Assembly (NCBI GenBank): GCA_026016245.1
Contig: CP061211.1
Span: 29,449-93,448 of the forward strand
Source: Candidatus Pacearchaeota archaeon
GTDB lineage: Archaea > Nanobdellota > Nanobdellia > Pacearchaeales > UBA284
Length of the DNA: 64,000 nt
Direction of reading: 5' to 3'
Each line of letters starts with the position of its first letter. Position 1 is the stretch's first letter. Both the position numbers and the translations under genes were made by a program. This document shows, in pieces, positions 13,105 to 52,499 of the stretch. Under the pieces are notes generated by a model. It was given only the letters and a program-made list of their open reading frames with translations. It searched no databases and was not told the DNA's origin.

Positions 13105-13521
13105 ATGGCAAAGAAAAAAATAAAAACAAGGAGAAGCGATAAAGGGATAACAATACAATTCATCCCATATTCAGAAATAGCTTATCTCACTAGCTTTAGA
13201 CGTGTGAAGAAGTTAGTTGATTTAGCTGTCGAGAACAAGATTTTGCTTGTTCAGGGAAAGCTTGCTCCTGAAGAGGAAGTTGACTTGATTGAGGAAACAA
13301 TGAAACATATAGTTAAGAGTAAAAAATCAAAGTTTAGAGGAATTGAGTTAGCTACATTCTCACCGAGATCAAAAGAATTACCTTTTTTTACTTCAATGAA
13401 AGAGAAACTTGCAACAAGTTTATTTGGTGATAGAGATGTTATCACAGTTATTGGTCCTGCTACAATTGTCCGTGAAATTAAAAAAGATCCCACTAAGATA
13501 CAACTCCTTTTAAGGAAATAA
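13105..13521 (+). CDS. Conserved archaeal small protein, DUF2073-like (from recollection, unverified). GTPase partner.
   Basis: It sits between the GTPase and the Zn-ribbon gene, separated by 10-20 nt, matching a gene triad recalled from other archaea. Confidence 0.35.
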   Translation: MAKKKIKTRRSDKGITIQFIPYSEIAYLTSFRRVKKLVDLAVENKILLVQGKLAPEEEVDLIEETMKHIVKSKKSKFRGIELATFSPRSKELPFFTSMKEKLATSLFGDRDVITVIGPATIVREIKKDPTKIQLLLRK

Positions 13522-13539
13522 TAAAAATAATAATTAAAA

Positions 13540-13971
13540 ATGCCTCATCAATGTGTTCGCTGCGGAAGAATCTATGATAGTGCTGCTCCTGAAGTTCTAG
13601 AAGGCTGTTCTTGCGGTTCTCATTACTTTTTCTTCTTTAAGGATGAAGACTTGGCTATGCAAAAGGAAACTGAAAAGCTTACTAGAGATGAAAGAGAAGA
13701 GATTGTCAAGGATGTTAGTGAAATAGTCGGGCCAGATATAGAGAAGCCAATAATCCTTGATTTAGAAAGTATCAGAGTACAGAAACCAGGAAAGTTTGAG
13801 ATTGATTTGGTTAGAATCTTCAAGAGAAAACCTATTATATACAAGATAGAGGAAGGAAAGTATATCATAGATCTTGCATCAACTTTCCAGATGAAATTAA
13901 AGGAGAAAAAGATTGAAAAGTTAAAAAAGGTTGAAGTTCCAGAACCTAAAGAATCTAAAGAAGAGGATTAA
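13540..13971 (+). CDS. Zn-ribbon protein (DUF2072-like)
   Basis: N-terminal C-x2-C...C-x-C ribbon (QCVRCGRIYD...GCSCGSH) followed by a charged tail. Confidence 0.45.
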   Translation: MPHQCVRCGRIYDSAAPEVLEGCSCGSHYFFFFKDEDLAMQKETEKLTRDEREEIVKDVSEIVGPDIEKPIILDLESIRVQKPGKFEIDLVRIFKRKPIIYKIEEGKYIIDLASTFQMKLKEKKIEKLKKVEVPEPKESKEED

Positions 13972-31203: not shown

Positions 31204-32310
31204 TTAATATTTTACATTAATACCCTTATAACTAAGAATTCTAATTACTGAAGAATCAATTCTTTTTTCATCAATAATACCATCTTTTACTGCTTTTTCA
31301 ATGATTTTTATCATATGATAAATATTTTTTATGTTTGGGTCAGTATTAAGAATGATATCATTATCAGCTTTGAACAGATCCATATACATCTGATCTTCAT
31401 TTGTATAATAGTCTCTTAATCCTAACATTCTGATTTCATCTGTGATTATTAATCCATCAAACTTATTTCTTAATTCATTTGTCAATTGTTCTGAAACAAC
31501 AGCTGGCTTTGATTCTGAATTTAAAATTCCTTCTGTGATTACATGTGAAACCATAATAGCAGACACATTACTTTTGATACTTTCTTCAAAAGGAAATAAA
31601 TCATTACTATCTATTTTAACATAAACAACATATTTATGAGGATCTTGAATAGAAAGTGTTTTTCCTGGATAGTGTTTGGAAGTTGCAATAATGCCATTTA
31701 ATTGTAGGCCATTAATATAAGCATTAGCTTTTTCTGAAATTTCTTCTGGCGTGCCAATAAAACTTCTACAATTCCATATTTCATCCTTAAGGTCAACTAC
31801 TGGAGCAAAATTTATTGTAAATCCTAAGGTTTTAAGTAACTTCCCTTCTTCATAACCTACCTGATAGGCTTCTTCTTTAGTTTTAATTTCTTTCAGAGAA
31901 GGAAAATGATGGAAGTTTTCAAAAGGATTCCAGCAGCCTTCTAAATCAGTAGAAATAAATAAAGGGATATAAGCGTCTTTTTGGAAATAATTAATTTTAT
32001 CAATAAATTCTTGAGCATTACTTTTTGCACCAAGATGAATTCCCCCTATTAACATGTTCTGCAAAGCATTTTTATTTTCTTCTTTCCCAGATGTAATGAT
32101 CATTTGGGCAATTTTTTGTTTCAAGGTTAAGGAATTAAGATATAGGGTATTTGTGGATTTATCATAAATGACCTTGGTTGGAGGTTGAATTTCAAGGGGT
32201 TTATCTTTTTCAAAATTTATAAAAACTAAAATTAGACACAATATTATAAGCAGAAAAGTTAAAAGAATCCCTATATTGATCTTGCTTATTTTATTTGATT
32301 TTGACATCAT
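31204..32310 (-). CDS. Glycoside hydrolase family 3 N-terminal domain, beta-N-acetylhexosaminidase-like
   Basis: KIAQMIITSG, ISTDLEG and SKHYPG correspond to the GH3 KxGQ...D...KHFPG pattern. Confidence 0.6.
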   Translation of the reverse strand: MMSKSNKISKINIGILLTFLLIILCLILVFINFEKDKPLEIQPPTKVIYDKSTNTLYLNSLTLKQKIAQMIITSGKEENKNALQNMLIGGIHLGAKSNAQEFIDKINYFQKDAYIPLFISTDLEGCWNPFENFHHFPSLKEIKTKEEAYQVGYEEGKLLKTLGFTINFAPVVDLKDEIWNCRSFIGTPEEISEKANAYINGLQLNGIIATSKHYPGKTLSIQDPHKYVVYVKIDSNDLFPFEESIKSNVSAIMVSHVITEGILNSESKPAVVSEQLTNELRNKFDGLIITDEIRMLGLRDYYTNEDQMYMDLFKADNDIILNTDPNIKNIYHMIKIIEKAVKDGIIDEKRIDSSVIRILSYKGINVKY

Positions 32311-32632
32311 AACCTTCTTTTTTGCAATAATTAAAAATTTTGTAATTTATTAAATAACTATAGTCAGAACTTTCAGAGATATAACAATACAAGTCAAAAT
32401 TTTCTGAATCTATTTTTTTGCAATTAAGTTGTTTTTGCAATTCATAACAACACCTATTTATGTCTGATATCTCACCCAACTCATCAACATTTTGAAAATA
32501 ACATTTAGGAGAAGACATATCTAAATTATAAATCATATCTCCTGTAACTGAATTTAAAGGATAAATTAGATTTATAGCCAAGATGATTACTAGTAGAATT
32601 AATATAATATTGATTGTTTTTACTGCTCTCAT
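32291..32632 (-). CDS. Small secreted Cys-containing protein
   Basis: N-terminal hydrophobic segment. 113 aa. Confidence 0.3.
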   Translation of the reverse strand: MRAVKTINIILILLVIILAINLIYPLNSVTGDMIYNLDMSSPKCYFQNVDELGEISDINRCCYELQKQLNCKKIDSENFDLYCYISESSDYSYLINYKIFNYCKKEGYDVKIK

Positions 32633-32665: not shown

Positions 32666-33499
32666 TTATGTTAACAGAGCTCTTGCTGCGGTAACAACTA
32701 GATAAGTGAATATGAGTAGTATTGCGCTGTGTTTGATACCATAATGTATTGATCCTTGGCTTAACTTGCCTATAACTAAGCCAGCAAACAAGGCTTGGAC
32801 AAGTAGTAAGATAAAGAATGATCTTTCAATTATCTCTGTTGAAATTCCTCCACCAACAGAGATGCCAAGACCAGTTGTTTGAATTTCTGTTCCTGTTAAT
32901 GCCCCAGCAATGAGGGGCATGAATTTTAATTCAACAAAAAGCATGATAACAACAAAGATAAAGAAAATTATATAACCTTGAACAACCATGCTATAAACTC
33001 TTGCCATTCTCTCCTTTTTTAAGTCCTCTATTTCATTAACACTTTTTACAACAGCATCTAGGACAGAGCCTATCTCCCCTCCAGAAGTTTCAGCCTCAAT
33101 AATTAATTCTACAGAACGTGAGATAACTTTATTCTTGATGTCAGATGCAAAAGTCCTTAGTGCTTGTTTGACAGGAATAGCTATCTTGATCTGATTTGCT
33201 AATTTCTGAATATGAGGGGTAAGACTACTATAGTCTTTTGATGCCACATTTATTATGCTCCTTGATATTGGTGCACCTACTCTAACACTTTCAACTAGAT
33301 TACGAGCAAACTCAAGGAACATCTCTTCCTTTTCTTTTTCACGTCCTGTTTCTGTTATAAAGGAGATAAGGAAAGGCAAGACAGCTATAACTATTGCTAT
33401 GCCAAGAAGAAAGTAAAAAAGGCTTTTGAGGAAGATAAGGCTAAGTACAACTATCAAGATTGATGTTATGATTGCGATTACTTGTATTTTTTTAGGCAT
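32666..33499 (-). CDS. Type II secretion F-domain membrane protein, the C-terminal half of a FlaJ/TadC-like platform
   Basis: Polytopic, with a T2SSF-like cytoplasmic domain. Adjacent to a second T2SSF-like gene and the ATPase. Confidence 0.55.
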   Translation of the reverse strand: MPKKIQVIAIITSILIVVLSLIFLKSLFYFLLGIAIVIAVLPFLISFITETGREKEKEEMFLEFARNLVESVRVGAPISRSIINVASKDYSSLTPHIQKLANQIKIAIPVKQALRTFASDIKNKVISRSVELIIEAETSGGEIGSVLDAVVKSVNEIEDLKKERMARVYSMVVQGYIIFFIFVVIMLFVELKFMPLIAGALTGTEIQTTGLGISVGGGISTEIIERSFFILLLVQALFAGLVIGKLSQGSIHYGIKHSAILLIFTYLVVTAARALLT

Positions 33500-33505
33500 T
33501 TTATT

Positions 33506-34783
33506 TTAAATTTCTGGTTGTGTTAAATGTAAAAATATGAGGAAAATGATGTTGAGTAGGGCTATGGCAACTATCCCTACATTAGCAAGTGTTGAGGCAG
33601 GCATTCCTATGAAGCTTGTGCCTATGATTGAGATTATTGCTAAGAGGAGCATGAATATAAGTGGAGCTGCAATAAGCAAGGCAGTATAAATATCAGAATA
33701 CATACCTATAATATTTGAGTATCTTTCATGGCTAAGTTTATAGTCAAGAAGACTATTTTTTGCTTTCTCATTTAAATAAATAGTTAGATTGCCTCCTGTA
33801 GTGATTGTGGTGGCCATTCCATTGAGCAAGTCAGCAAATTTTCTGCTTGATGTTTGTCTTGATACATTTTTTAAAGCAGTTGTTAAATCATAGCCAAAAA
33901 CATTAATCTGATTCACTATTTTTTTCATTTCTGTACTAAAGGCCTTATATTCTTTTGTTAGAGCCATTATTGAAAAAATTCTTGAAGGTTCTACTTTGCT
34001 AGAAGCTATGGCTGCCATATGAGATGTTGCAAAAGGAAGTTCAGAATCTACCTTCTTCCCATGAGAAGATGCTGTGTTTGACGGCCAGCTTAGTGTGAGG
34101 AAAAATATTATAGCTGTTAAAGCAATAACTATGGCAAAATTTCTTATGGCTGTGCTAAGAGAAGTTGTAAAGAAAAGAGCAATTACAAGAATTATAATAA
34201 AGGATAGTAGAGTTAAGAATAATATTATAGAAATATAGCTGCTGAGAGTGTAGGGCATGTTAGCTTTTCTCAGATCTTTCCCTATACTTTTGAAGAATGG
34301 TTTTTTAGAAAGTTTTTTTGAAGTGTTGTAAAAAATCTTATTTGCAAATGAAGCCAGGGCAGAAGGTCTTGCTATTATTTCCTCAGTTATCTCAGGTTTT
34401 TTCTTCAGAATTTTTTTTCTGACTTTTCTGAGGGCTTTTTTTTCTATTCCCAAGTCTTCTAAAAATTTTTCCTTACTTTCTTTTGTGATATAAACTGGGC
34501 CTGACACTGTTGTTATTCTTTCATATTTTTTTCTTTTTGCAGATGGCCTTTTTACTGGTTTTGCTTTTTCAACCACTATGCTTTCAACAAGAGCTCCAAT
34601 TGGTTCATTAATTAGCTGAAGTTGATTAATCAGAGCCATGGCTGATTTTTCTATCATTACTTTTTCTTCACCTCTGGCAATATTATAAGAAGCAGATAAA
34701 GCATACAATTCACGTACTATCTTTTCTGATCTGCTGATATTAGATTTTATTGATCCCAGAGCTTCTTCTAGTATAGACACCAT
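33506..34783 (-). CDS. Type II secretion F-domain membrane protein, the N-terminal half of a FlaJ/TadC-like platform
   Basis: T2SSF-like segment and multiple TM helices. Confidence 0.55.
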   Translation of the reverse strand: MVSILEEALGSIKSNISRSEKIVRELYALSASYNIARGEEKVMIEKSAMALINQLQLINEPIGALVESIVVEKAKPVKRPSAKRKKYERITTVSGPVYITKESKEKFLEDLGIEKKALRKVRKKILKKKPEITEEIIARPSALASFANKIFYNTSKKLSKKPFFKSIGKDLRKANMPYTLSSYISIILFLTLLSFIIILVIALFFTTSLSTAIRNFAIVIALTAIIFFLTLSWPSNTASSHGKKVDSELPFATSHMAAIASSKVEPSRIFSIMALTKEYKAFSTEMKKIVNQINVFGYDLTTALKNVSRQTSSRKFADLLNGMATTITTGGNLTIYLNEKAKNSLLDYKLSHERYSNIIGMYSDIYTALLIAAPLIFMLLLAIISIIGTSFIGMPASTLANVGIVAIALLNIIFLIFLHLTQPEI

Positions 34784-34986: not shown

Positions 34987-36564
34987 TTATTTTAATCTTT
35001 TTGCTTCTTCTGGCACATATTTTGAAAGCACAGCTTTTGGATTCTTATAGTATTCATTGATCATTTTCTGTACTGTTGAAAAATCATAAATTCTCTTTTT
35101 ATACAAGGCAAAGAGCAGTTTTGTTCTGATTTTGAATTCTCTAAGAATCTGTTCTTTTGAAAGTCCATAACGTTTTTGTATTTTCTCAAAAACTTTACTT
35201 TCTGTTTTAAAATAAAAAGAATCTTCAGATGGATTCCACATGAAAGGTGTATTTGTAAGGGCAATGCCTTCTGCTGTAACATCAACTACTTCAATAACTT
35301 CCCTCAGACGTCTTGTTTCTTCTTTATCAACCAAAGCATGAGTCATTACAGCTACAGCATCTAGACTGTTTACAAGAGTTGGGCTAAGATTTATTGGTGG
35401 TGTTTCTAATCTTCTTATCACTGTTTCTACAGAATCAGCGTGCATTGTACTAAGTGATGGATGGCCTGCTGCCATTGCCTGGAATAAGACAAAAGCCTCT
35501 TTACCTCTGACCTCACCAACAATGACATAATCAGGATTTTGCCTGAAACTTTCTTTAAGCAAAGTAAACATATCTATCTCTCCTGCTCCTGCAAGTCCTG
35601 CTCTGGCTACGCTTGGGAGCCAGTTTTCTCTTGGCAAATTAATCTCCCTAGTGTCCTCAACAGAAACAACTCTTGCTTCAGGTGGAATAAAGAAAGCTAG
35701 AGCATTCAACATAGAGGTTTTCCCTGAACCTGTCCCTCCTGTTATTAAGATATTTGCTTTGTACTGCATAAGAATCCAGAAATAAGCCAGCATTTCCGGA
35801 CTTAATGTGTTCATAGAAATAAGCTGTATAGGTGTCCAAGGAACTTTAGTGAATTTTCTTATTGTGAAAGTTGGCCCTCTACTTGTTATTTCAGTTGTGT
35901 ATGTGGCATTTACTCTAGAACCATCAGGAAGTGTTCCATCAAGCAAGGGAGTGGCATAAGAAATGTAACGTCCACATCTTTGAGCAAGTTTTTCAACAAA
36001 ACTTGCAAGCTCTTTTATATTTTTATAAGTAAGATTTGTTTTCATATTTCTGTAAAGTCTGTGAACTATGTAGACAGGTGTATTAACCCCATTACACTCT
36101 ATATCCTCAATGAAAAAATCTCTAAGCAGGGGTTCAGTTTCATTAAGGCCAATAAAATCACGGTAAAGATAATAAAAAATTCTTGAATAGGATTCTTCAC
36201 TTAATGTTCTTCCTAGCTCATTTAGAATAAGCTTGGCCATCTTGTCAATATAAGATAAAAGAGCTTCTTGTGTTTTTTCTATTACTGCTCCAAGATTAAT
36301 CAATTCGAGCATTCCTGATTCTATCTCTTCTAAAGTCTTTTTTTCAAATTCATTTAATATGGGCTCTTCTACTTCATAAATCAGTTCAGAAGATTTTTTA
36401 TTCCAGTATATATGTGCTGTTGCATGAGGTGCAATTAAGATGTAGCGAATATTTATCTTTGTCTTGTCCTCCACTCTCCTTAAAACAGGAATTTCTGGAT
36501 TAATATTGATTACAGGATGCTCTGGTTTTGGTGGTGAAGGGATTTCTGGAACTGGCAAAGCCAT
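34987..36564 (-). CDS. Secretion ATPase of the FlaI/TadA/VirB11 family, the type IV pilus or archaellum assembly motor
   Basis: Walker A GGTGSGKTS. Downstream Asp box, Walker B and His box. Confidence 0.8.
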   Translation of the reverse strand: MALPVPEIPSPPKPEHPVININPEIPVLRRVEDKTKINIRYILIAPHATAHIYWNKKSSELIYEVEEPILNEFEKKTLEEIESGMLELINLGAVIEKTQEALLSYIDKMAKLILNELGRTLSEESYSRIFYYLYRDFIGLNETEPLLRDFFIEDIECNGVNTPVYIVHRLYRNMKTNLTYKNIKELASFVEKLAQRCGRYISYATPLLDGTLPDGSRVNATYTTEITSRGPTFTIRKFTKVPWTPIQLISMNTLSPEMLAYFWILMQYKANILITGGTGSGKTSMLNALAFFIPPEARVVSVEDTREINLPRENWLPSVARAGLAGAGEIDMFTLLKESFRQNPDYVIVGEVRGKEAFVLFQAMAAGHPSLSTMHADSVETVIRRLETPPINLSPTLVNSLDAVAVMTHALVDKEETRRLREVIEVVDVTAEGIALTNTPFMWNPSEDSFYFKTESKVFEKIQKRYGLSKEQILREFKIRTKLLFALYKKRIYDFSTVQKMINEYYKNPKAVLSKYVPEEAKRLK

Positions 36565-37096: not shown

Positions 37097-37606
37097 TTAT
37101 GTAATAAATATTTCTCTTCTCTTAGGAATGATTATATTTCCAGAGTATTTTAATTCATGGGCTTTTCTTTCTTTAAAAAATATGGTTTCTAATCCATCAA
37201 ATTTTTTAATATCCCCTTGGTTTTCATCGAAATATTCATATTTTCCTTGTTTAAATTTTACAGGACCTCTAAATGGCCTTTCTATTTTAATATTTTGTAG
37301 TGTTTCTTTTAAAAAATCAAAAGTTTCTTCAGCAAATTCATAATCAAGATTGGCATCTATCATGCTAGTCATGCCCCAACCATAACTCATAGACCATATA
37401 AGTTCTCCCTTAAATCTTACAGTTTCAAAGCCACGAATAAGATAAAAACCTACATAATAATCTTCATATTTTAAATCTCTTTCATTATATTCAAATTTTT
37501 TAAATCCTGGGATTTCAGAAACTACTTCTTTCCCATCACCAGCCCAAGTCACTTTTTTAGCTTTAACTAAAAATTTTGCAAGCTCTTGCCTATGTATTTC
37601 TTCCAT
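37097..37606 (-). CDS. Hypothetical protein inserted between rps28e and rpl24e
   Basis: 169-aa ORF with 1-2 nt spacing to both neighbours. Confidence 0.4.
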
Positions 37607-40160: not shown

Positions 40161-40487
40161 ATGGAAGATAATGCAATAAAAAGAGTGTATAAATCTAGAA
40201 GAATTGTTGTTCATCCTGATGTTGTTGATAGATCAAGAAACTGCGGAATAGGACGTTCTCTTTGTATGAATGTCAGCACAAGAGAAATTTCAGAATTATA
40301 TGATTTAGGGAAAATAGTAAGAACTGAAAAAGAAAAACAATATTTCTTCAATAAAGATCCTGCAAGTCAATTTTGTAAAGATTTTTTTGAATTAATGATA
40401 TTATATGAAATAACAAAGAAAAAAATAAAAAAATATTTTGAAAAACTAAATTTTAAAAAAACAAAAAATGAGAAAACCAACATATGA
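40161..40487 (+). CDS. Hypothetical protein
   Basis: 108-aa ORF. Overlaps the next gene by 20 nt. Confidence 0.3.
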   Translation: MEDNAIKRVYKSRRIVVHPDVVDRSRNCGIGRSLCMNVSTREISELYDLGKIVRTEKEKQYFFNKDPASQFCKDFFELMILYEITKKKIKKYFEKLNFKKTKNEKTNI

Positions 40488-41013
40488 AGAACAAAACAAG
40501 TTTTTAGAATCATATGTAGCACCAATTACATTAGATGCTGATGTTGAACAAGTTATTGAGAACATCAAAGAGAACAGTAAAGAAGCAAAGTGGAAAAGAG
40601 AATATTATGCAAAGAGATTAGATGATGAAAATTTCTTGAAAGAATCAGAAAAAGCTGGAGTTTTTATATCTCTTGCTTCTATGGATATTAGAGACTGCAG
40701 TTCTTTTGAGAAGTTAATGTCTAAAATGAGACATAAAATTAAAGGAACAGAAGAATATGAGGCAGATCAAATAGACAAAAAACTATTTAATTACAAGTTT
40801 ATAGGTCCAGAATCTCTTATAAAACTATTTAATTACAAGTTTATAGGTCCAGAATCTCTTATAAAACTATTTAATTACAAGTTTATAGGTCCAGAATCTC
40901 TTCCTGATTGCTTTAAGATTTATTTTAACCATCTAGGAAAAGAAGATAATAGACCTTGTCCATGTGGTTCTGGAAAACCTGCTGATAGATGCTGCATAAA
41001 AGAAGATAAATAA
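40468..41013 (+). CDS. Protein with a C-terminal SEC-C metal-binding motif and three perfect 14-aa tandem repeats
   Basis: C-terminal PCPCGSGKPADRCC is a SEC-C-type motif. Repeat unit KLFNYKFIGPESLI, three copies. Confidence 0.5.
   Translation: MRKPTYEEQNKFLESYVAPITLDADVEQVIENIKENSKEAKWKREYYAKRLDDENFLKESEKAGVFISLASMDIRDCSSFEKLMSKMRHKIKGTEEYEADQIDKKLFNYKFIGPESLIKLFNYKFIGPESLIKLFNYKFIGPESLPDCFKIYFNHLGKEDNRPCPCGSGKPADRCCIKEDK
40780..40901 (+). repeat. Perfect 42-bp tandem repeat, 2.9 copies, in-frame within a CDS
   Basis: The unit aaactatttaattacaagtttataggtccagaatctcttata repeats exactly. Confidence 0.9.
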
Positions 41014-41026
41014 TTTTTTTCTATTT

Positions 41027-42016
41027 TCATAACCACTTAACTTCAACATCATCTGTTCTTTCATAAGGATTGATATCAACTTTTTCTATCTCGCATCTCT
41101 GTCCAGCCTTAAACATAAGAATGCCAAGCCAAGCAATCATTGTGGCATTGTCTGTCAAAAATTCATTAGGAGGGCAGAAGAATTTAGCATCTCGTTCCTT
41201 ACACATAATCTTGCACATTTCTTGAAGTCTTGTATTGCAAGCAACACCCCCACCTAATAACAACTCTTTTTTCTTGAGATGTGCCATTGCTCTTTCAGAT
41301 ACTTCAACTAACATGGCAAAAGCATGTTCCTGCAATGAAAAAGAAAGCTCTTCAATTTTATTTCCTTTATCATATTTTTGCTTTAAATTAGTGAGCAGGC
41401 CAGAGAAGGCAACATCCATGCCTTTCACAGAATAAGGAAGCTCAATAAAGTTATTAGATTTTTTAGCAAGTTCAGCAATTCTTGGGCCGCCAGGAAAGCC
41501 CAATCCTATATATCTTGCAAATGAATCAATAAAATTACCTACTCCAATGTCAAGAGTTTCACCAAAAATTCTGTATTTGCCAGAAGCATAGCTTATCACT
41601 TGTGTATTAGCTCCTGAAACATATAACAAGACAGGATCTTTTGCTTTTGTAAGAAGCTTGCCAATTTCAAGATGAGCAATGCAATGATTTACTGGAATTA
41701 AAGGGATATTCAATTTTTTAGCCAGTTCTTTTGCAAACCTCATTCCTTGAAGTAAGCAAGGAGCAATACCAGGACCTTGAGAAAAAGAGATAATATTAAT
41801 ATCATTAAGAGCTAAGCCTGCCTCATTCAAAGCATCATTTAATATTTTATCTTTAATTTTTTTATGATGCTTTGCTGCTTCATTAGGAATTATACCTCCT
41901 TTTTTTGTTGTATAGGAATCTCTAACATTAGCTAATACTTTTCCTTTGCTATCTATAATACCTACACCAAATGTATGGGCAGTGCTTTCTATTCCCAAGC
42001 AAACCAATTTTTTCAT
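41027..42016 (-). CDS. kae1: tRNA N6-adenosine threonylcarbamoyltransferase Kae1/TsaD, stand-alone
   Basis: MKKLVCLGIESTAHTFGVGII and PVNHCIAHLEIG. ASKHA fold. Length 329 aa. Confidence 0.8.
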   Translation of the reverse strand: MKKLVCLGIESTAHTFGVGIIDSKGKVLANVRDSYTTKKGGIIPNEAAKHHKKIKDKILNDALNEAGLALNDINIISFSQGPGIAPCLLQGMRFAKELAKKLNIPLIPVNHCIAHLEIGKLLTKAKDPVLLYVSGANTQVISYASGKYRIFGETLDIGVGNFIDSFARYIGLGFPGGPRIAELAKKSNNFIELPYSVKGMDVAFSGLLTNLKQKYDKGNKIEELSFSLQEHAFAMLVEVSERAMAHLKKKELLLGGGVACNTRLQEMCKIMCKERDAKFFCPPNEFLTDNATMIAWLGILMFKAGQRCEIEKVDINPYERTDDVEVKWL

Positions 42017-42133
42017 AACAGATTGAGAGGAAAATAACTTTTATATTTTACTAAACTAAAAAGCTATAAAAGTTTGTTATATTCAATCGCTACGGGGCAA
42101 AACTTTATTAATGAATCTTATTTTTATTAATAT

Positions 42134-42484
42134 ATGAAGATAACTATTTGTTGTTCAAAAAAATATTTTCCAGAAATTCAAAAGTTTTTAGGAAGTTTAA
42201 ATGATTCTAAAAATGAATTTTTAACTCCTGATTTGAATTTTATGGGTGAAATAAATGAGACGACAAAAAGGAAGCTTTCCGATGTCCATCATGAAAAAAT
42301 TAGGAGTAGTGATGCAATATATATTTACAATCCAAATAACGAAATTGGCCGAAGTACTAATTTAGAGATGGGATTTGCCATCGCATTAAATAAAAAAATC
42401 TTTGCATTCAAAAAAATAGGAGAACCTGGTTTAGATTGTTTTATAGAGAAATTATTAACATTAGAAGAGTTAACAAAATTATAG
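42134..42484 (+). CDS. Nucleoside 2-deoxyribosyltransferase-like small protein
   Basis: GRSTNLEMGFAIALNKKIF resembles the DSGTAFEIGYA catalytic-Glu motif. Confidence 0.35.
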   Translation: MKITICCSKKYFPEIQKFLGSLNDSKNEFLTPDLNFMGEINETTKRKLSDVHHEKIRSSDAIYIYNPNNEIGRSTNLEMGFAIALNKKIFAFKKIGEPGLDCFIEKLLTLEELTKL

Positions 42485-42564
42485 TTTTGCCCCTTCACGA
42501 CTCTGGATTTTTCCCTTCGGGGACGTTGCACTAAAATTTTACCCTTCAGAGAATATAACAGGAA

Positions 42565-42837
42565 TTAAGTACATCTTTTCCTATGTACATTCAAATATCT
42601 CCTCAAGAAATAATTCACAAAGCCATCTTCATCTTTTTGTAATGCTTTATAATATGCTCGCCTTTTAGCATACTTAATGATTAACATTGGATAATTATTA
42701 TACCACAAAATATGATTCATGATCAATCGACCAATCCTTCCATTCCCATCCCCAAATGGATGGATTTTCTCAAATTTGTAATGAGCTCTGGCAGCTAGCT
42801 CTACAGGATTCTTGTGGCAAGCTATTACACCAAGCAT
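42565..42837 (-). pseudogene. Fic/Doc-family gene remnant
   Basis: The Fic motif HPFGDGNGR is 26 aa from the ORF start. Upstream, 37 codons stay open and then hit an in-frame TAA at 42847-42849. The N-terminal roughly 100 aa of a Fic core are missing. The divergent neighbour starts at 42958. Confidence 0.55.
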
Positions 42838-42957
42838 GGCTTTTGTTTATGCTACTGTTATTAGTCTTCTTTCAGTAATTTTATTTCTTGCGCATAAATA
42901 ACTAGACAGAAAGTTTATATACTCCTTTTGTGCAGTAAAAAAAGGCTTTGGTAGAAG

Positions 42958-43863
42958 ATGTCAAAAAAATCATACAAATCCAAAAAATATTATAAGCAAT
43001 TAGTTGAGGAAGCAGGTATCGCTATTTTAATTGATGACGAAAAAGGGAATTTCAGATTTGGTAATAAAAAATTTGCAGAGCTTTTTGGTTATTCTACAGG
43101 AGGGATATTAAAAAAATCAATAAAAGATATTGTTCATCCTGATGATGTTGAAAGAGTTATGGAAATCCACAGAACAAGAGTTAGAGGAGAAAAAGTTCCT
43201 TCAAATTATGAATTTAAAGGTATAACAAAAGATAAAAAACCTATATGGTTAGAAATACACGCTGAACAGTTAAGAGAGAAAGACAAGATAGTAGGAACTC
43301 GTTCTTTTATCTGGGAAATTACTGATCGTAAGAAAAAAGAAGAGTATATGGTTTATTTAGCTTATCATGATGTTCTTACAGGCTTGGCTAATAGGTGGTT
43401 GTTGTATGATAAGTTTGATTCAGAGTTAACTCATATAAGCCGTCACAATCTTAAAGATATTTTAATGTCTGTAATGTATCTTGATTTGGATTATTTTAAG
43501 GATATTAATGATAATTTAGGACATAACACTGGGGATATGTTATTAAGGGATGCAGCAAGAAAATTAGAAAAATGTGTTAGAAAGGGCGATACTTTAGCTC
43601 GTCTTGGAGGAGATGAGTTTTTAATTCTATATACTAATGTTACAAAAAAAGAAGATATTAAATTTTTAGCAGATAAAGTCTATGAAGTTTTTCAAAAACC
43701 ATTTAATATTAGTAATAAAAAAATAAACATGACTACTAGCATGGGTATTTCAGTATATCCTAATGATAGTGAAGAGATAGAACAGTTAATTGATAATGCT
43801 GATAAAGCACTTTATGTCGCTAAAAGGAAAGGAAGAAATAGGTATGAATTTTTCAGCCAATAA
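42958..43863 (+). CDS. PAS-GGDEF protein, a putative diguanylate cyclase
   Basis: N-terminal PAS-like fold. GGDEF active site in RLGGDEFLILY. RYEF near the C-terminus. Confidence 0.7.
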   Translation: MSKKSYKSKKYYKQLVEEAGIAILIDDEKGNFRFGNKKFAELFGYSTGGILKKSIKDIVHPDDVERVMEIHRTRVRGEKVPSNYEFKGITKDKKPIWLEIHAEQLREKDKIVGTRSFIWEITDRKKKEEYMVYLAYHDVLTGLANRWLLYDKFDSELTHISRHNLKDILMSVMYLDLDYFKDINDNLGHNTGDMLLRDAARKLEKCVRKGDTLARLGGDEFLILYTNVTKKEDIKFLADKVYEVFQKPFNISNKKINMTTSMGISVYPNDSEEIEQLIDNADKALYVAKRKGRNRYEFFSQ

Positions 43864-43896
43864 ATAATAATAGAATAAAAAATTAGCTAAGGGAAA

Positions 43897-44265
43897 ATGT
43901 CAAAAAGTATTTTGATTGTTGAAGATGAAGGAATCGTAGCAATGGATATAAAAAGAACTTTGCAAGGTTTTGGATACTCAGTTATTGGTATTGTGCCTTC
44001 TGGGGAAGAAGCTATTGAAAAAGTAAAAAATGCTTGTCTTGATTTAATACTTATGAATATATCATTAAGAGGAAATATGGATGGTATTGAAGCTGTTGAA
44101 AAAATACATGAGAATTCTGATATTCCTATTATTTACATTACAGGACACTTTAATGACGAGCTTTATGAGCGAGCAAAAAAGACAAAACATTTTAGATATT
44201 TAAAAAAACCATTGAATACAGAAGAGTTACAAAAAACCATAGAAGCAGCATTCTGCAAAAAATAA
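43897..44265 (+). CDS. Stand-alone response-regulator receiver (REC) domain
   Basis: ILIVEDEG...DLILMNISLRGNMDG carries the phospho-acceptor Asp context. K at the expected position. Confidence 0.7.
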   Translation: MSKSILIVEDEGIVAMDIKRTLQGFGYSVIGIVPSGEEAIEKVKNACLDLILMNISLRGNMDGIEAVEKIHENSDIPIIYITGHFNDELYERAKKTKHFRYLKKPLNTEELQKTIEAAFCKK

Positions 44266-44302
44266 AATATAAAAATAAAAAAAGAAAAATTAAATCTGGG
44301 GT

Positions 44303-44455
44303 TTACTTCTTTTTCTTCTTCTTTTTGGCCTTCTTTTTTTTCTTTTTTCTTCCACCACGAGCCATTTTTGCTTCACAGACATTACCTTTTCCGTCGATGT
44401 AGTATAAGTATCCTTTCTTTCTTTTTACTGCGCCTTTAACAAGAACTTTTCCCAT
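44303..44455 (-). CDS. Unannotated 50-aa basic protein, below the ORF-track length cutoff
   Basis: Translation MGKVLVKGAVKRKKGYLYYIDGKGNVCEAKMARGGRKKKKKKAKKKKKKK. Strong SD AGGAGGT at 44466-44472, 10 nt from the ATG. Confidence 0.5.
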   Translation of the reverse strand: MGKVLVKGAVKRKKGYLYYIDGKGNVCEAKMARGGRKKKKKKAKKKKKKK

Positions 44456-44537
44456 TTTTTATTTAACCTCCTTTTGATTTAAATTGACCTTAGCCATTTA
44501 ATTAATAATTTAAGGCAGAACTATTATTTAAATCTTT

Positions 44538-44921
44538 CTATTCTCCGTCGATAGATTTTTTGTATCTGCTGAATAGTCTCTTTATTCTTGCTTTTGTTAT
44601 GACATTATGGTGCCTGAAACCGCCGCCAAAGCTCTTCGGTATATGCAACAATTCATGAATCAAGGTTTTAAGCTTCTCTTCCTCGCTTTGTTTATCAAAA
44701 TTTTTACTTATCACTTCTATTATATAAGCTGGTTCTGCCCCGAGAGAGAGCTGCATCACCTTCGGTAATGAATGGCATCGAGCTATTATTCCTCTAGATT
44801 TTGAACCATGACTTCTCAAACAAAATATTCTGTCTTTGTTAAGATGCCCCATATCTAAAATATTAATTATCAAATCTATTTTTCTCTTGATATCTGGAGC
44901 ATCTTCATATTTTATTCTCAT
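44538..44921 (-). CDS. Minimal HExxH zinc metalloprotease-like protein, WLM/DUF45-like
   Basis: LIHELLHIPKSFGGGFRHHN. Length 127 aa. Confidence 0.45.
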   Translation of the reverse strand: MRIKYEDAPDIKRKIDLIINILDMGHLNKDRIFCLRSHGSKSRGIIARCHSLPKVMQLSLGAEPAYIIEVISKNFDKQSEEEKLKTLIHELLHIPKSFGGGFRHHNVITKARIKRLFSRYKKSIDGE

Positions 44922-45799
44922 TTTTTGAATTTTACCCTTATCTTACTATCTCTTATAGTAATCATAGCATATTTACCATACTTGGCTGCTCCTGGATTTA
45001 TGATAAGGGTTTTTCCTATTTTATCTTGTCCTTGGTTTTCATGCATGTGACCAGCCACACACAATAAAGGTTTATGCTTTTCTATTATTTTACGAGTAAG
45101 ATAAGAACCATAATGTTTTCCTTTAGCTAATTTATGTGCTCCTTTTGCCCTTATTAAATCAAGTTTTGTTTTGTATGGAACATTATGAGAAATAAAAATA
45201 AAATTTTTCCTATCTATTTTTTTTATTTCTTTCTCTATTCTCTTTTTTTGATTTCTATAATCTTTCAATCTTAATCTTAATTTATCTTTCATTCTAGGTT
45301 TAATACCATAATAAGAACTTCTTGGATAACCCACAAAATAAAGATTTTCAAAATTTACTAACTTATAGTCAGCAACTTTTATTTTATGCTTTTTAAGAAG
45401 AGGAGTAATTAAATCTTTTTTGTGCAATCTTCTTCTACGGGGGCTGGAAATTTCACCTATATCTCTATAAGTAGTTAGGTCTATATTTCCTGTGACTGAT
45501 ATTGCTGGTATATTTAAATTACCTATATAAACAATAACTTTCTTCCCATCTCTTAAATTTTTTTTTGTGAATTCTTTTTGTTTTTTCTTTCCTATTACTT
45601 GCCATAATGGTTTGTCTGTCCCATAAGAATATTTGAAAATAAGTTTTCTTTCATAAAGAGGACAGAAATCTCCCGGACTTATGATTAAATCTGGTTTTTC
45701 TTTTTTGATTACTTTTTTTATGAAATAAGGGATTTTTCCATGAAAGTCGCCAATTGCTAAGATCTTTATCTCTTTCATTTTGGTAAGTTTCTTGCCCAT
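44918..45799 (-). CDS. Calcineurin-like metallophosphoesterase
   Basis: GDFHG, PGDF, GN.D and GHMHE motifs in order. Confidence 0.7.
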   Translation of the reverse strand: MGKKLTKMKEIKILAIGDFHGKIPYFIKKVIKKEKPDLIISPGDFCPLYERKLIFKYSYGTDKPLWQVIGKKKQKEFTKKNLRDGKKVIVYIGNLNIPAISVTGNIDLTTYRDIGEISSPRRRRLHKKDLITPLLKKHKIKVADYKLVNFENLYFVGYPRSSYYGIKPRMKDKLRLRLKDYRNQKKRIEKEIKKIDRKNFIFISHNVPYKTKLDLIRAKGAHKLAKGKHYGSYLTRKIIEKHKPLLCVAGHMHENQGQDKIGKTLIINPGAAKYGKYAMITIRDSKIRVKFKK

Positions 45800-46653
45800 C
45801 TGTTGAGATTTTTTATTACTTTTTCTGGTGTTAATGATTCAAGTTTTTTAACAAGAGTTTTGTCTTGCAACATTTTTTCATTGAGTGGAACTGAGATGCC
45901 ATCCACTTCTTTTGGACTTTTCATATGCAGACTAAAAGGACATCTTGCTAGTTTTCCACTTGGTGTCTGGCTTGGATCTATTATTATTGTATTAAAAGTT
46001 TTTTCATGTCCCCCTTTTACTTTTATTTTTGTTTCTTTGCTGATTTTTTGAGCCCATCTTCCTGTGAAACTTTCCAAAGGCTTATCTTTTTTACAACTTA
46101 TGTATTTTTGATAGAAACTTTGTGGCACAGCCTTGTTTAGCATTAAATAGAGATGAAAACTCTTGCCTGTCCACATCAAGAAAGTTTTGAACTTGATTAA
46201 TTTTTTAAATTCTTTATCACTCCTTATTGTTTTTATTAAAGCTATGATAACTTGTTGGGTTTGCTGCGCTGTTGTTCCTTTTCCTCTATCAATATCAAAG
46301 AAAATTCTGTCTATTGGCTTGCCTTTTCCTTCCCTGTTGGTGGCATAGAAAAAATCTATTAGTTTGGCTTGAGGAAAATATCCCCATATCTTATCTTGCT
46401 GTTTTGTTATCTTGTCTCTTGCTCTTTTTAGATTAGTCTTACTTCTTAATTCTAAGAGTTTATTATCCACAACACTGAATTCTTCAATGTATAAAGGTTG
46501 GGCTTTGGAGCCTCTTTTTATGAAAAAACCAAAAGGAAGCCATACTTTTGATGCAATTTCCTTGTTTTTCAGAAAATTTTTTAGTTTATTTGCGATAGCA
46601 CTATAGTATGAAAGAACGTCAGTCTTGCCAAAAGGTTTGAGTATATCTTGCAT
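45775..46653 (-). CDS. Archaeo-eukaryotic primase (AEP) superfamily protein, resembling the DNA primase small subunit PriS
   Basis: Motif I FFDIDRG (D-x-D). Motif II WTGKSFHLY (sGxxGxH). Motif III IIDPSQT..KLARCPFSLHMKS. Confidence 0.5.
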   Translation of the reverse strand: MQDILKPFGKTDVLSYYSAIANKLKNFLKNKEIASKVWLPFGFFIKRGSKAQPLYIEEFSVVDNKLLELRSKTNLKRARDKITKQQDKIWGYFPQAKLIDFFYATNREGKGKPIDRIFFDIDRGKGTTAQQTQQVIIALIKTIRSDKEFKKLIKFKTFLMWTGKSFHLYLMLNKAVPQSFYQKYISCKKDKPLESFTGRWAQKISKETKIKVKGGHEKTFNTIIIDPSQTPSGKLARCPFSLHMKSPKEVDGISVPLNEKMLQDKTLVKKLESLTPEKVIKNLNRWARNLPK

Positions 46654-46675
46654 GTTTGTAAAATGTAAGAAACAT

Positions 46676-46689
46676 TTATAAATATATAC
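46676..46689 (+). promoter_or_regulatory. Putative archaeal TATA box for the rps12-rps7-fusA operon
   Basis: tttataaatatata lies about 40 nt upstream of the rps12 ATG, with a GAGGGT SD in between. Confidence 0.35.
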
Positions 46690-46723
46690 GAAAATTAACT
46701 TATATCAGATTATAGAGGGTAAA

Positions 46724-47146
46724 ATGGGAATGTTGAATGCTCGAAAAATTAAGAAGAAAAGGAAGAAGTTCCGTTGGTCTAGTCAGAAGTATAAAAAAAG
46801 ATTATTGAAATTAAAGGAAAAGTCTGACCCTCTTCAAGGCACAAGCCAGGCTAAAGGAATTGTTTTAGAAAAGGTGCAATTTGAAGCAAAGCAGCCAAAC
46901 TCTGCTATGAGAAAGTGTGTTAGAGTCCAGCTTATTAAGAATGGAAGGCAAGTCACTGCCTATGTTCCTGGCAATCTAGCTTCTAAGTTTATTGACGAGC
47001 ACGATGAGGTTATGATAGAAGCTATTGGAGGAAAACAAGGAAGAGCTAAAGGAGATATCCCTTGTGTTAGATATACTGTTATCAAGGTAAATGACCAGCC
47101 TCTTGCGATGTTAGTTAGAGGTAAGATAGAGAAAGGTGGAAGATAA
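46724..47146 (+). CDS. rps12: Ribosomal protein uS12
   Basis: [13 protein letters not shown]...[15 protein letters not shown]. Confidence 0.85.
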
Positions 47147-47741
47147 AGAGAATAAGATGAAAATTTTTGATTTATATGGTACTGAAGATGTGAAAATTGA
47201 GGATTTTGGTTTGAAGAGATATATTAATCTAGATATAAAACTAGTGTTAAAATCCAGAGGAAGATATCGTGAGAGATTTGGTAAGGCTAAGGTAAATATT
47301 GTTGAGAGGCTGATAAATATTGTTGCTGTTCCAGGTCATAGAGGAAAGAAACACAAAATTATGACCAAATCTTGTGGTAAGTATACAAAAGGAGCTAATA
47401 TTGTGCTAGGGGCTTTTAAGATTATTGAGGAAAGAACCAAAGAAAATCCTATTCAAGTTCTTGTTAGAGCTGTAGAGAAAGCTGCTCCAAGAGATGAAAT
47501 AACAACTATAGAGTATGGGGGTGCTAGATATCCTCAAGCAACTGATAGCGCACCTCTTAGAAGATTAAATGTTGCCTTAAAGCATATTGTTCATGGAGCT
47601 TACGATAAAGCTTTTGCCAAAAAAAAGAAGATTCCTGAAACACTTGCAAATGAAATCATTCTTGCGTCTAAAGGGACTAATGAGAGTTTTGCTATAACCA
47701 AAAAAATTGAAACAGAAAAACAAGCTGATTCTGCACGTTAA
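47136..47741 (+). CDS. rps7: Ribosomal protein uS7
   Basis: uS7 signature with archaeal length. The start may be the internal MKIFD. Confidence 0.8.
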
Positions 47742-49941: not shown

Positions 49942-50361
49942 ATGACAGAACAAAAACAATATCAAGATTTATTAGAAAAGGCATATAAAGAAGTCAAGCA
50001 AGTCAAGACAATTGAGCGTTTCGAGATTCCTAAGGTTGAATCACACATAGTAGGATATCAAACCATAATCAGCAATTTCTCCCAGATATGCTCTAATTTA
50101 AGAAGAAAACCAGAACACCTTGCAAAATTCTTAGCAAGAGAATTAGCAACTCAAGGAAATATCAAAGGAGATAGATTAATTTTAAATAGAAAATTAAGTT
50201 CCAGGATGATTAATGAAAAAATTGAGGCTTATGTTAAAGAATTTGTCTTATGCCCAGAATGCGGCAAGCCAGATACTGAACTTATTAAAGAAGGTAAATT
50301 CATGTTCCTACATTGTCTTGCTTGCGGAGCAAAACATTCTGTTAGGGCAAAGATTGTTTAA
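49942..50361 (+). CDS. Translation initiation factor 2 beta subunit (aIF-2 beta)
   Basis: C-terminal Zn ribbon CPECGKPDTELIKEG...LHCLACG. Confidence 0.8.
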   Translation: MTEQKQYQDLLEKAYKEVKQVKTIERFEIPKVESHIVGYQTIISNFSQICSNLRRKPEHLAKFLARELATQGNIKGDRLILNRKLSSRMINEKIEAYVKEFVLCPECGKPDTELIKEGKFMFLHCLACGAKHSVRAKIV

Positions 50362-50362
50362 A

Positions 50363-50725
50363 ATGGTAAGAATCGATAAAAAACTTAAAAATTTAATTCA
50401 AAAAAATATTCTGGCATTTGCTACATCTTATTCTAAAAAACCAAATGTGGTAGCTATTGCTTGTGTTAAAGTAACAGGACCAGATACTTTAGTTATTACA
50501 GACAATTATATGAATAAAACAAAAAAGAATTTACTGAAAAATAAAAATGTTGCCATAGTTGTATGGAACAAAAAAGGAACTATTGGCTATCAGTTAAAGG
50601 GAAAAGCAAATTATATTACAAAAGGCAAATGGTTAAAGTTTGTTAAAAATATGAAAGAAAATAAAGAAATGCCAGCAAAAGCTGCAATAATAGTTAAAGT
50701 AAAAGAAGTCTATAAACTTGCTTAA
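50363..50725 (+). CDS. PNPOx-like FMN-binding split-barrel protein
   Basis: Start taken at MVRIDKK immediately after the aIF-2 beta stop. VVAIACVKVTG...VAIVVWN pattern. Confidence 0.45.
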   Translation: MVRIDKKLKNLIQKNILAFATSYSKKPNVVAIACVKVTGPDTLVITDNYMNKTKKNLLKNKNVAIVVWNKKGTIGYQLKGKANYITKGKWLKFVKNMKENKEMPAKAAIIVKVKEVYKLA

Positions 50726-52150: not shown

Positions 52151-52284
52151 GCTCCGGTAGCTCAGTGGCTAGAGCACACGGCTGTTACTACAGCTTTCTT
52201 TAGAAAAGAAAGCTCTAGGAGGTAAAGAAACTATTTTTGCCTGCAGAAACCGTGGGGTCGTAGGTTCGAATCCTATCCGGAGCG
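52151..52284 (+). tRNA. tRNA-Asn(GUU) with a 61-nt intron at the canonical 37/38 position
   Basis: Acceptor stem GCUCCGG/CCGGAGC. D arm GCUC...GAGC. Anticodon stem CACGG/CCGUG. Anticodon GTT at 52184-52186. Intron 52188-52248 has a GCTGT/ACAGC helix consistent with bulge-helix-bulge. T arm GTAGG-TTCGAAT-CCTAT. Confidence 0.75.
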
Positions 52285-52350: not shown

Positions 52351-52499
52351 GGGCCCGTAGCTCAGCCTGGTTTAGAGCACTACGCTGATAGCCTTACTAC
52401 AGCCTCTTAAAGGGGGTGATGGAACTGGAGCGCTTTGCGTTCCACTGTAGTTTGGTTCTAGAAACGTAGGGGTCATGGGTTCGAATCCCATCGGGCCCA
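52351..52499 (+). tRNA. tRNA-Ile(GAU) with a 73-nt intron at 37/38
   Basis: Acceptor stem GGGCCCG/CGGGCCC. Anticodon stem CUACG/CGUAG. Anticodon GAT at 52387-52389. Intron 52391-52463. T arm GGGTT... TTCGAAT. Confidence 0.75.

Follow-up and report, generated by a model that had tools for sequence, protein, structure and literature searches.

A PAS-GGDEF gene, predicted to encode a diguanylate cyclase and probably of bacterial origin, in a narrow clade of Pacearchaeota

The stretch of DNA analyzed here, referred to as the window, is 64 kb long and represents about 9% of the ~710-kb genome of a Candidatus Pacearchaeota archaeon. An earlier note on this DNA had claimed two adjacent open reading frames (ORFs) at 42958-44265, encoding a PAS-GGDEF protein and a CheY-like receiver (REC), and had interpreted them as a horizontally acquired, bacterial-type signalling module for cyclic di-GMP (c-di-GMP). 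The ORF listing gave exactly these coordinates. The product of the first gene is identical to UZE94019.1, labelled by NCBI as 'MAG: GGDEF domain-containing protein [Candidatus Pacearchaeota archaeon]', in which MAG denotes a metagenome-assembled genome. The two genes and the features assigned to them are as follows.

42914-42921 (+): TATA-box-like octamer TTTATATA, 37 bp upstream of the PAS-GGDEF start codon
42958-43863 (+): PAS-GGDEF gene, 301 amino acid residues, predicted sensor diguanylate cyclase
42988-43332 (+): PAS sensor domain, residues ~11-125 (Pfam PAS, PAS_9, PAS_3, PAS_4, and PAS_8)
43360-43842 (+): GGDEF catalytic domain, residues 135-295 (PF00990 over its full length)
43579-43590 (+): I-site R208-K-G-D211 (RxxD), the product-inhibition site, five residues ahead of the GGDEF motif
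43606-43620 (+): active-site motif G217-G-D-E-F221, within R215-L-G-G-D-E-F221
43897-44265 (+): stand-alone REC gene, 122 amino acid residues (PF00072)
44056-44058 (+): codon AAT for Asn54 of REC, at the position of the phospho-acceptor Asp, identical in the independent assembly L001

Both domains of the PAS-GGDEF protein were recognized by profile searches. Five Pfam PAS models scored above their cut-offs within residues 11-125, with E-values from 1.6e-11 to 3.8e-7, and TIGR00229 (PAS) scored 78.8 bits against a cut-off of 22.9. PF00990 matched over profile positions 1-161 of 161 with an E-value of 3.3e-48 (163.9 bits; cut-off, 23.8), and TIGR00254 (GGDEF) scored 147.7 bits against a cut-off of 37.4. 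Scores of this size, like that of REC below, cannot plausibly arise by chance. Across 77 homologues, G217, G218, D219, and E220 of the active-site motif were invariant and F221 was nearly so, and the motif was kept in the three archaeal orthologues. In the I-site, D211 showed no variation and R208 almost none. The homologues share 24 invariant columns, and the window protein retains every one of them. The catalytic, binding, and I-site residues that we checked (D176, K181, N184, D193, R208xxD211, R215, GGDEF 217-221, K289, and R293) are all present, and only R293 falls outside the invariant or nearly invariant columns. From the motif alignment and knowledge of the family, we take D176, K181, N184, D193, K289, and R293 to be the equivalents of PleD D327, K332, N335, D344, K442, and R446, respectively, and R208xxD211, R215, and GGDEF 217-221 to be those of the PleD I-site R359xxD362, R366, and GGEEF 368-372, respectively. 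D193 corresponds to the Asp that canonically specifies guanine, where Hypr cyclic GMP-AMP (cGAMP) synthases have Ser. An RxxD I-site is typical of diguanylate cyclases but not obligatory. The 'RYEF' segment suspected near the C-terminus turned out to be R295-Y-E-F298, inside the usual C-terminal GRNRYEF, and the active site was indeed found intact.

The ColabFold AlphaFold2 model of the protein had a predicted local distance difference test score (pLDDT) of 97 and a predicted template modelling score (pTM) of 0.84. In the model, an N-terminal helix (residues 3-17) leads into a PAS fold with a five-stranded sheet and flanking helices, which a linker helix (residues 122-136) joins to the GGDEF domain. 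The modelled GGDEF domain superposed on those of YfiN, PA0575, and a T. maritima protein with root-mean-square deviations (rmsd) of 1.2-1.5 A in Foldseek, whose best matches, with E-values up to 3e-22, included the PAS-GGDEF-EAL protein RbdA (5xge, E 8e-24) and the LOV-activated cyclase 8c05. The LOV flavin-binding motif GXNCRFLQ was not visible by eye in the sequence, and no other pointer to a PAS ligand was found in the sequence or the predicted model. Based on these residues and this model, the GGDEF domain is predicted to be catalytically competent. Upstream of the gene, the octamer TTTATATA is a possible archaeal promoter element, although the evidence is suggestive only: it is not enriched in the window (8 copies against 8.9 expected), and four of its five plus-strand copies lie 44-71 bp, counted from the first base of the octamer, upstream of plus-strand ORF starts.

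By its gene content, the window clearly belongs to an archaeon. Profile scans identified the archaeal protein families OapB/OapC, PAC2, TrmB, Kae1, L7Ae, eIF-2beta, and eIF-1A, and the window also encodes a TFS-type zinc ribbon, a KH protein, and a FlaI-like ATPase with two T2SSF proteins. Ribosomal proteins S12 and S7 were identified from orthologous genes in the loci L001, L002, and L004, and EF-2 from its orthologue in L002. These informational genes on the contig, together with the conserved synteny with L002, L004, and L167, place the PAS-GGDEF gene on an archaeal (DPANN, Pacearchaeota) chromosome.

Locus L001, a 6,397-bp contig from the Logan assembly of run DRR463595, is identical throughout to positions 40873-47269 of the window and covers Kae1, the Fic remnant, GGDEF, REC, metallopeptidase, metallophosphoesterase, primase-polymerase (PrimPol), and S12. 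Among 5.8 billion protein clusters, the only close homologues of the GGDEF protein were P0002/P0121 (68% identity) and P0003 (67%), which occupy the same slot of collinear archaeal loci, between Kae1 and S12-S7-EF-2. In L002, for example, the order is T2SSF, T2SSE, L24e, S28e, L7Ae, a surface protein, Kae1, a variable stretch, and PAS-GGDEF, followed by a basic ORF of 50-54 residues, the metallopeptidase, S12, S7, EF-2, eIF-2beta, DUF424, and eIF-1A. The sister loci come from ENA ERZ27236675, Logan SRR26701722, ENA ERZ23491060, JGI 3300009429, and JGI 3300013797; the position of the GGDEF gene is thus shared by two further related lineages, with contigs from at least six datasets. Because an independent assembly is identical and the gene holds the same slot in diverged sister loci from separate datasets, chimerism and bin contamination are excluded for practical purposes. 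The concern of the earlier note that the contig might be chimeric was thereby settled in favor of a genuine join.

The divergence of the GGDEF gene was compared with that of its neighbours in the three lineages. The genes around it show 79-91% identity between lineages (Kae1, 81%; S12, 88-89%; EF-2, 86-91%). The corresponding values for GGDEF are 68%, 68%, and 81%, near those of the KH protein (68%) and DUF424 (70%). The dN/dS ratio of GGDEF was 0.12-0.21, compared with 0.14 for Kae1, 0.14 for the KH protein, and 0.04-0.07 for S12 and S7, all of these values being approximate because dS is near saturation (0.9-1.3). Relative to the other genes of the window, the GGDEF gene has a GC content of 0.291 (z -0.96), a GC content at third codon positions (GC3) of 0.192 (z -0.83), and synonymous codon use on the host-typical side (z +1.3); the REC gene behaves alike. 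Because of this host-like composition and the co-divergence with its neighbours, the GGDEF gene is old and vertically inherited in the clade, adapted to its host in composition and kept by selection, and not a recent import. A recently acquired segment is therefore not supported. The note had named, as a finding that would speak against horizontal acquisition, vertical inheritance of the module in many archaeal genomes; inheritance within the clade does look vertical, but it extends to three lineages only, not to many.

Beyond this clade, the relatives of the GGDEF protein are distant. Only three of the 5.8 billion protein clusters are more than 43% identical to it, all in archaeal contexts, and the named members among 6,250 further matches at 43% identity or less are bacterial (Legionella, Brevibacillus, Syntrophales, 'Deltaproteobacteria', and others). 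The best full-length matches among GTDB species representatives were MAGs of Syntrophales/Syntrophaceae (38-40%), and the best 80 matches in contigs of GTDB-representative genomes were all bacterial. The nearest relatives of the PAS domain are P0006, P0007, and P0008 (45-50% identity), and those of the GGDEF domain are P0005, P0043, and P0081 (46-49%); the loci of P0006 and P0007 are rich in kinase, REC, and HD-GYP genes, as is typical of bacteria. The scan of viral contigs gave no relatives of the GGDEF protein and nothing that points to a virus-borne gene. In metagenome contigs, the best match among the matches listed was 39% identical, and the patterns, from a mixed alignment, were generic GGDEF motifs. 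Because the relatives outside the clade are at most 43% identical and the named ones are bacterial, a horizontal origin from bacteria is the best reading, and on this point the earlier note was right; its further suggestion that the donor may have been a bacterial host is speculative. The most economical account would be one old bacteria-to-archaea transfer followed by vertical inheritance in a narrow Pacearchaeota clade. Overall, we consider it likely that 42958-43863 is a genuine archaeal gene for a PAS-regulated diguanylate cyclase, predicted to be catalytically competent, that was acquired once from bacteria and has been passed on vertically under purifying selection.

Several observations weigh against this interpretation. 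In addition to the near-saturated dS, the window copy of GGDEF carries 58 lineage-specific substitutions, compared with 17 and 21 in the other two lineages. Thirty-nine of the 58 lie within the GGDEF domain, with clusters at residues 147-172, 226-233, and 269-278, the first of which includes a 3-residue deletion; the checked catalytic residues are unchanged. This faster change coincides with the presence of REC and could reflect either a new interaction surface or a constraint that has been partly relaxed. No single donor is indicated, since the PAS domain and the GGDEF domain have their closest relatives in different proteins, all less than 50% identical. Among 58 window proteins scanned with Pfam, none contained a PilZ, EAL, HD-GYP, MshEN, or histidine kinase domain, including HisKA and HATPase_c, and a regular-expression search of the six-frame ORFs, which is a crude test, gave no match to PilZ, MshEN, HD-GYP, or VpsT motifs. 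The PilZ, EAL, or HD-GYP partners that the earlier note proposed to look for were thus not found within the 64 kb. No c-di-GMP riboswitch was detected in the window at the Rfam gathering thresholds. Finally, according to a 2023 review, c-di-GMP has not been detected in any archaeon.

The REC gene lies 33 bp downstream of the PAS-GGDEF gene on the same strand, and the arrangement suggests that the two are probably co-transcribed. Its product matched PF00072 with an E-value of 1.1e-22 (80.8 bits; cut-off, 30.2). The presence of a CheY-like receiver after the cyclase gene was therefore correctly noted, but its phospho-acceptor is missing: Asn54 aligns with the phospho-acceptor Asp of four solved receivers (3cg0, 3h5i, 1s8n, and a designed receiver), so that the Asp expected at the end of beta-3 is replaced, and 116 of the 120 nearest homologues have Asp at this position. 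The other pocket residues (E9, D10, T82, and K104-P105) are kept. Two further stand-alone receivers of 121 residues among these 120 homologues, P0230 and P0232 (locus L172; 49-50% identity), also have Asn at the acceptor position, and one of them adjoins a Y1 transposase gene. The Asp-to-Asn change may be recurrent in this REC subfamily.

No REC gene was found 3' of the GGDEF gene in L002, L004, or L167, and within the three lineages it occurs in that of the window only. Because it is missing after the GGDEF gene in the two sister lineages, REC is not a conserved partner of the cyclase. It has no close orthologue; its best matches (50-56% identity) are stand-alone receivers from methanogens (Methanobacterium and Methanosarcinaceae) and bacteria alike. 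Accordingly, when nearest neighbours were sought in bacteria and archaea, a bacterial affinity emerged for GGDEF and a mixture of methanogen and bacterial relatives for REC. The context of the REC homologues P0126, P0127, and P0230 consists of ordinary two-component clusters or short contigs and is uninformative on a partner. Compared with the REC domains of the most closely related REC-PAS-GGDEF proteins, REC shows only 26-34% identity, and the idea that both genes arose by the splitting of one REC-PAS-GGDEF gene was rejected on account of this low identity. Taken together, REC appears from these alignments to be an Asp-less receiver that was gained by the window lineage or lost by the others, and the description of the two genes as a module was not sustained. 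Because the phospho-acceptor Asp is replaced by Asn54, any effect of REC on the cyclase would be phosphorylation-independent and not a two-component output.

Other genes of the window were considered as possible partners or context of the cyclase. The FlaI-like ATPase and the two T2SSF proteins are encoded at 34987-36564, 33506-34783, and 32666-33499 (-), respectively, ~6-10 kb upstream of the cyclase gene. The ATPase scored 386 bits with the NCBIfam archaellum FlaI model, under its cut-off of 550, and the trio is kept in the sister lineages, with the ATPase 87% identical. Related ATPases in bacteria are c-di-GMP targets via MshEN domains; the window ATPase has no MshEN domain or motif. These type IV pilus genes are a reasonable guess for a c-di-GMP target. 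A calcineurin-type metallophosphoesterase (44918-45799) was set aside as a candidate cyclic-dinucleotide phosphodiesterase: its gene overlaps that of a LigD-type PrimPol, with which it appears to be co-transcribed, and is absent from the sister lineages. The idea that the cyclase belongs to a defence island was also dropped; ten neighbour proteins were scanned with PADLOC and PHROGs, and GGDEF fits no defence-system model.

The earlier note had named a Fic remnant and a SEC-C protein as neighbours of the cyclase gene, and a Pfam scan identified both.

42565-42837 (-): Fic fragment, 90 amino acid residues, matching profile positions 58-93 of 93 only
40468-41013: SEC-C motif protein

The Fic family had been regarded as otherwise bacterial, which was contradicted by 132 close relatives of the fragment (up to 89% identical; 67-158 residues), every named one of which is from a DPANN archaeon (Aenigmarchaeota, Nanoarchaeota, and Woesearchaeota). 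The family is a mini-Fic/Doc family, mostly of ~130-158 residues in full, and ~55-60 residues are missing from the N-terminus of the window copy, in which the HPFGDGNGRIGR motif is preserved. Among the ten neighbour proteins scanned, only this remnant matched candidate-defence Fic models of PADLOC (PDC-S04 and SoFic). Because identity is high across DPANN phyla, the alignments suggest that mini-Fic/Doc is a mobile toxin-like gene circulating among DPANN. The SEC-C gene contains a perfect tandem repeat of 42 bp x 3 (100% matches) at 40779-40902, which encodes LIKLFNYKFIGPES three times and looks like an in-frame expansion of very recent date.

Compared with L002 and L167, positions 30446-52118 of the window form a collinear backbone with several small insertions in the window lineage. 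These comprise a GH3 gene with a 113-residue ORF (31204-32632), DUF5680 (37097-37606), a 108-residue ORF with SEC-C (40161-41013), a Nuc_deoxyrib_tr-like gene with Fic (42134-42837), REC, metallophosphoesterase with PrimPol, and PNPOx (50213-50725). In L002, the gap between Kae1 and GGDEF instead holds HhH-GPD, cupredoxin, and fragmented adh_short genes; this gap is a hotspot of gene turnover. The metallophosphoesterase and PrimPol genes (44918-46653, -) overlap with one another and with the conserved metallopeptidase gene. They lie between metallopeptidase and S12 in the window lineage only, being absent from L002, L004, and L167, and probably form a DNA-end-processing or repair cassette. A basic ORF of 50-54 residues, with MGKVLVKGAVKRKKGYLYYIDGKGNVCEAKMARGG followed by a Lys tail, is convergent with the GGDEF and REC genes at 44303-44455 (-) and is also present at 10969-11133 of L002 and 974-1126 of L004. 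It is 88-96% identical between lineages, compared with 88-89% for S12. Searches with Pfam, NCBIfam, PHROG, and PADLOC models gave no match to it, and its product may be a so far unrecognised protein that binds nucleic acids or associates with the ribosome.

Two tRNA genes on the plus strand, at 52151-52284 (134 nt) and 52351-52499 (149 nt), matched the full 71-position model of Rfam RF00005 with 56 and 55 bits and were missed by ARAGORN; their extra length is read as long introns. At 13105-13971 (+), the OapB and OapC genes adjoin a PAC2 gene, and a chromosomal replication origin may lie near them. The cumulative GC skew makes no sharp turn there.

If the PAS-GGDEF protein works as its family and the model would predict, the gene, which an ancestor of this narrow Pacearchaeota (DPANN) clade probably acquired once from bacteria, would encode a protein that forms a parallel dimer through its N-terminal helix, PAS domain, and helical linker. 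A signal at PAS would shift the two GGDEF domains relative to each other; each domain would bind one GTP-Mg2+, and the two GTP molecules would be condensed to c-di-GMP, whose binding at the RxxD I-site would limit output. REC would be a later addition, specific to the window lineage, and if it acts on the cyclase at all, would do so by phosphorylation-independent protein-protein contact.

Published reviews up to 2024 agree with the premise of the earlier note that GGDEF domains and c-di-GMP are essentially absent from archaea. Galperin et al. (2018) reported one archaeal GGDEF protein, from Methanocella arvoryzae (CAJ37382), and an inactivated REC-GGDEF protein in 'Ca. Micrarchaeum acidiphilum', and questioned whether archaeal GGDEF genes represent contamination; in the same work, stand-alone REC was the commonest archaeal response-regulator type. 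Of the GGDEF proteins of archaea, Romling (2022) wrote that they 'need to be confirmed in archaeal contigs', and according to a 2024 review archaea 'do not have c-di-GMP'. The sole cyclic dinucleotide second-messenger system established in archaea is that of c-di-AMP, which they use (Romling 2022; 2023 review). A groundwater study counted diguanylate cyclase genes in ultra-small MAGs, with DPANN not separated out, and our literature search found no paper analyzing this PAS-GGDEF protein or clade.

Given this history of doubt about GGDEF genes in unfinished archaeal genomes, and the bacterial identity of the closest homologues outside the clade, a bacterial GGDEF and REC fragment might have been joined to an archaeal contig during assembly or binning. 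The gene order is the same in an independent assembly, identical over 6.4 kb, and it recurs in orthologous but diverged loci of at least five further datasets. Together with the host-like composition, the co-divergence with neighbouring genes, and the TATA-like element upstream, this makes the probability of such an artefact negligible. It is also highly improbable that the domain makes another product, either 3',3'-cGAMP, as Hypr GGDEF enzymes do, or c-di-AMP. Archaea use the latter, and GGDEF enzymes can be promiscuous (Hallberg 2016, cited in the 2023 review), but Asp193 (PleD D344) and N184 are kept in all three lineages. Asp at the D344 position and Asn at the N335 position are canonical and guanine-specific, and Hypr enzymes have Ser at the former. 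A third alternative is the joint transfer of PAS-GGDEF and REC as a two-component/c-di-GMP module in which phosphorylation of REC controls the cyclase. The adjacency of the genes on the same strand with a 33-bp gap fits this idea, as does the fact that the best solved REC relatives, 3cg0 and 3h5i, are receiver domains of REC-PAS-GGDEF proteins. However, Asn54, the lack of REC in both sister lineages, its low identity to the receiver domains of the most closely related REC-PAS-GGDEF proteins, its nearest relatives being stand-alone receivers of methanogens and bacteria, and the lack of a histidine kinase in the window render this very unlikely.

Two other alternatives concern the role of the protein and the use of its product. 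The GGDEF domain might no longer synthesize c-di-GMP but serve as a scaffold or, by way of its I-site, as a receptor, and it might sense c-di-GMP made by neighbouring bacteria. DPANN cells live attached to other cells, the RxxD site is intact, the window has no partner enzymes or effectors, c-di-GMP is undetected in archaea (2023 review), and precedents exist in degenerate bacterial GGDEF domains and in the inactivated REC-GGDEF protein reported for Micrarchaeum. We nevertheless regard this role as unlikely, given that all catalytic and substrate-binding residues are kept in the three lineages, where the gene is under purifying selection; loss of the GG(D/E)EF motif or of the metal ligands is the norm for GGDEF domains of the receptor type. 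Alternatively, the enzyme might be active and its product used between organisms, with c-di-GMP delivered to or leaking into a bacterial partner or host, altering the biofilm or motility of that partner and not acting as an internal messenger. Pacearchaeota have reduced genomes and are presumed symbionts, and no internal effector or phosphodiesterase was found in the 64 kb. The closest full-length homologues in genomes are from Syntrophales, and in the syntrophic bacterium Syntrophobacterium fumaroxidans c-di-GMP controls aggregation with methanogens, according to a published report. No export or delivery system is linked to the gene, however, and the proposal, which is purely inferential, seems to us quite unlikely.

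We retain the reading of a cyclase gene acquired once from bacteria and inherited vertically. Whether the clade goes on to make and use c-di-GMP is a separate and more doubtful matter: it is possible, and we suggest it only tentatively, that these archaea do so through unrecognised archaeal effectors, such as the FlaI-type pilus or the Asp-less REC, or by acting on a bacterial partner. Non-canonical effectors or cross-domain action are proposed here because no canonical PilZ, EAL, or HD-GYP protein is encoded near the gene. If true, this would be the first case of a c-di-GMP messenger in Archaea. For one clade, the confirmation that the reviews called for is now supplied by an intact gene with synteny in three lineages, host composition, and purifying selection. 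With a defined protein of 301 residues, c-di-GMP production in archaea and its role become directly testable, and a genome of ~0.7 Mb with an apparently single cyclase would offer a minimal system for non-canonical effectors.

Compared with known systems, the window protein is a canonical PAS-GGDEF cyclase in an unexpected host and not a new kind of enzyme; the automatic NCBI annotation already names it a GGDEF protein. Bacterial PAS-GGDEF cyclases (8c05; RbdA/PA0861, 5xge; and the 325-residue Syntrophales protein P0040) have the same architecture, size, and catalytic and I-site residues, and the identity to the Syntrophales proteins is 38-40% over the full length. In contrast to these, the window gene lies on a DPANN chromosome beside an S12-S7-EF-2 operon and has host-like composition; its product has no EAL domain and no LOV motif visible by eye, and there are no canonical effectors nearby. 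The likeness to PleD and WspR lies in the occurrence of REC and GGDEF together, in the RxxD I-site, and in a match to PleD with an E-value of 7e-22. Here, however, REC is encoded by a separate downstream gene, is Asp-less, and is absent from the sister lineages, so that the phosphorylation-driven dimerization of PleD and WspR cannot apply.

Aspartate-less receivers are known, for example RitR, with Asn at the acceptor position, and FrzS. REC resembles them in that the acceptor Asp is replaced and the rest of the pocket kept, and it is likewise presumed to be phosphorylation-independent; it is set apart from them as a stand-alone protein of 122 residues with no output domain. The c-di-AMP signalling of archaea, with DacZ-type diadenylate cyclases, involves another fold, nucleotide, and set of targets and is unrelated to the GGDEF domain. 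The closest precedents by host are the GGDEF proteins of Methanocella and Micrarchaeum, with which the window protein shares an archaeal genome and a presumed horizontal acquisition. Judged by the published descriptions, the Micrarchaeum protein is inactivated, whereas the GGDEF domain of the window protein is intact, and its gene shows synteny in three lineages and purifying selection.

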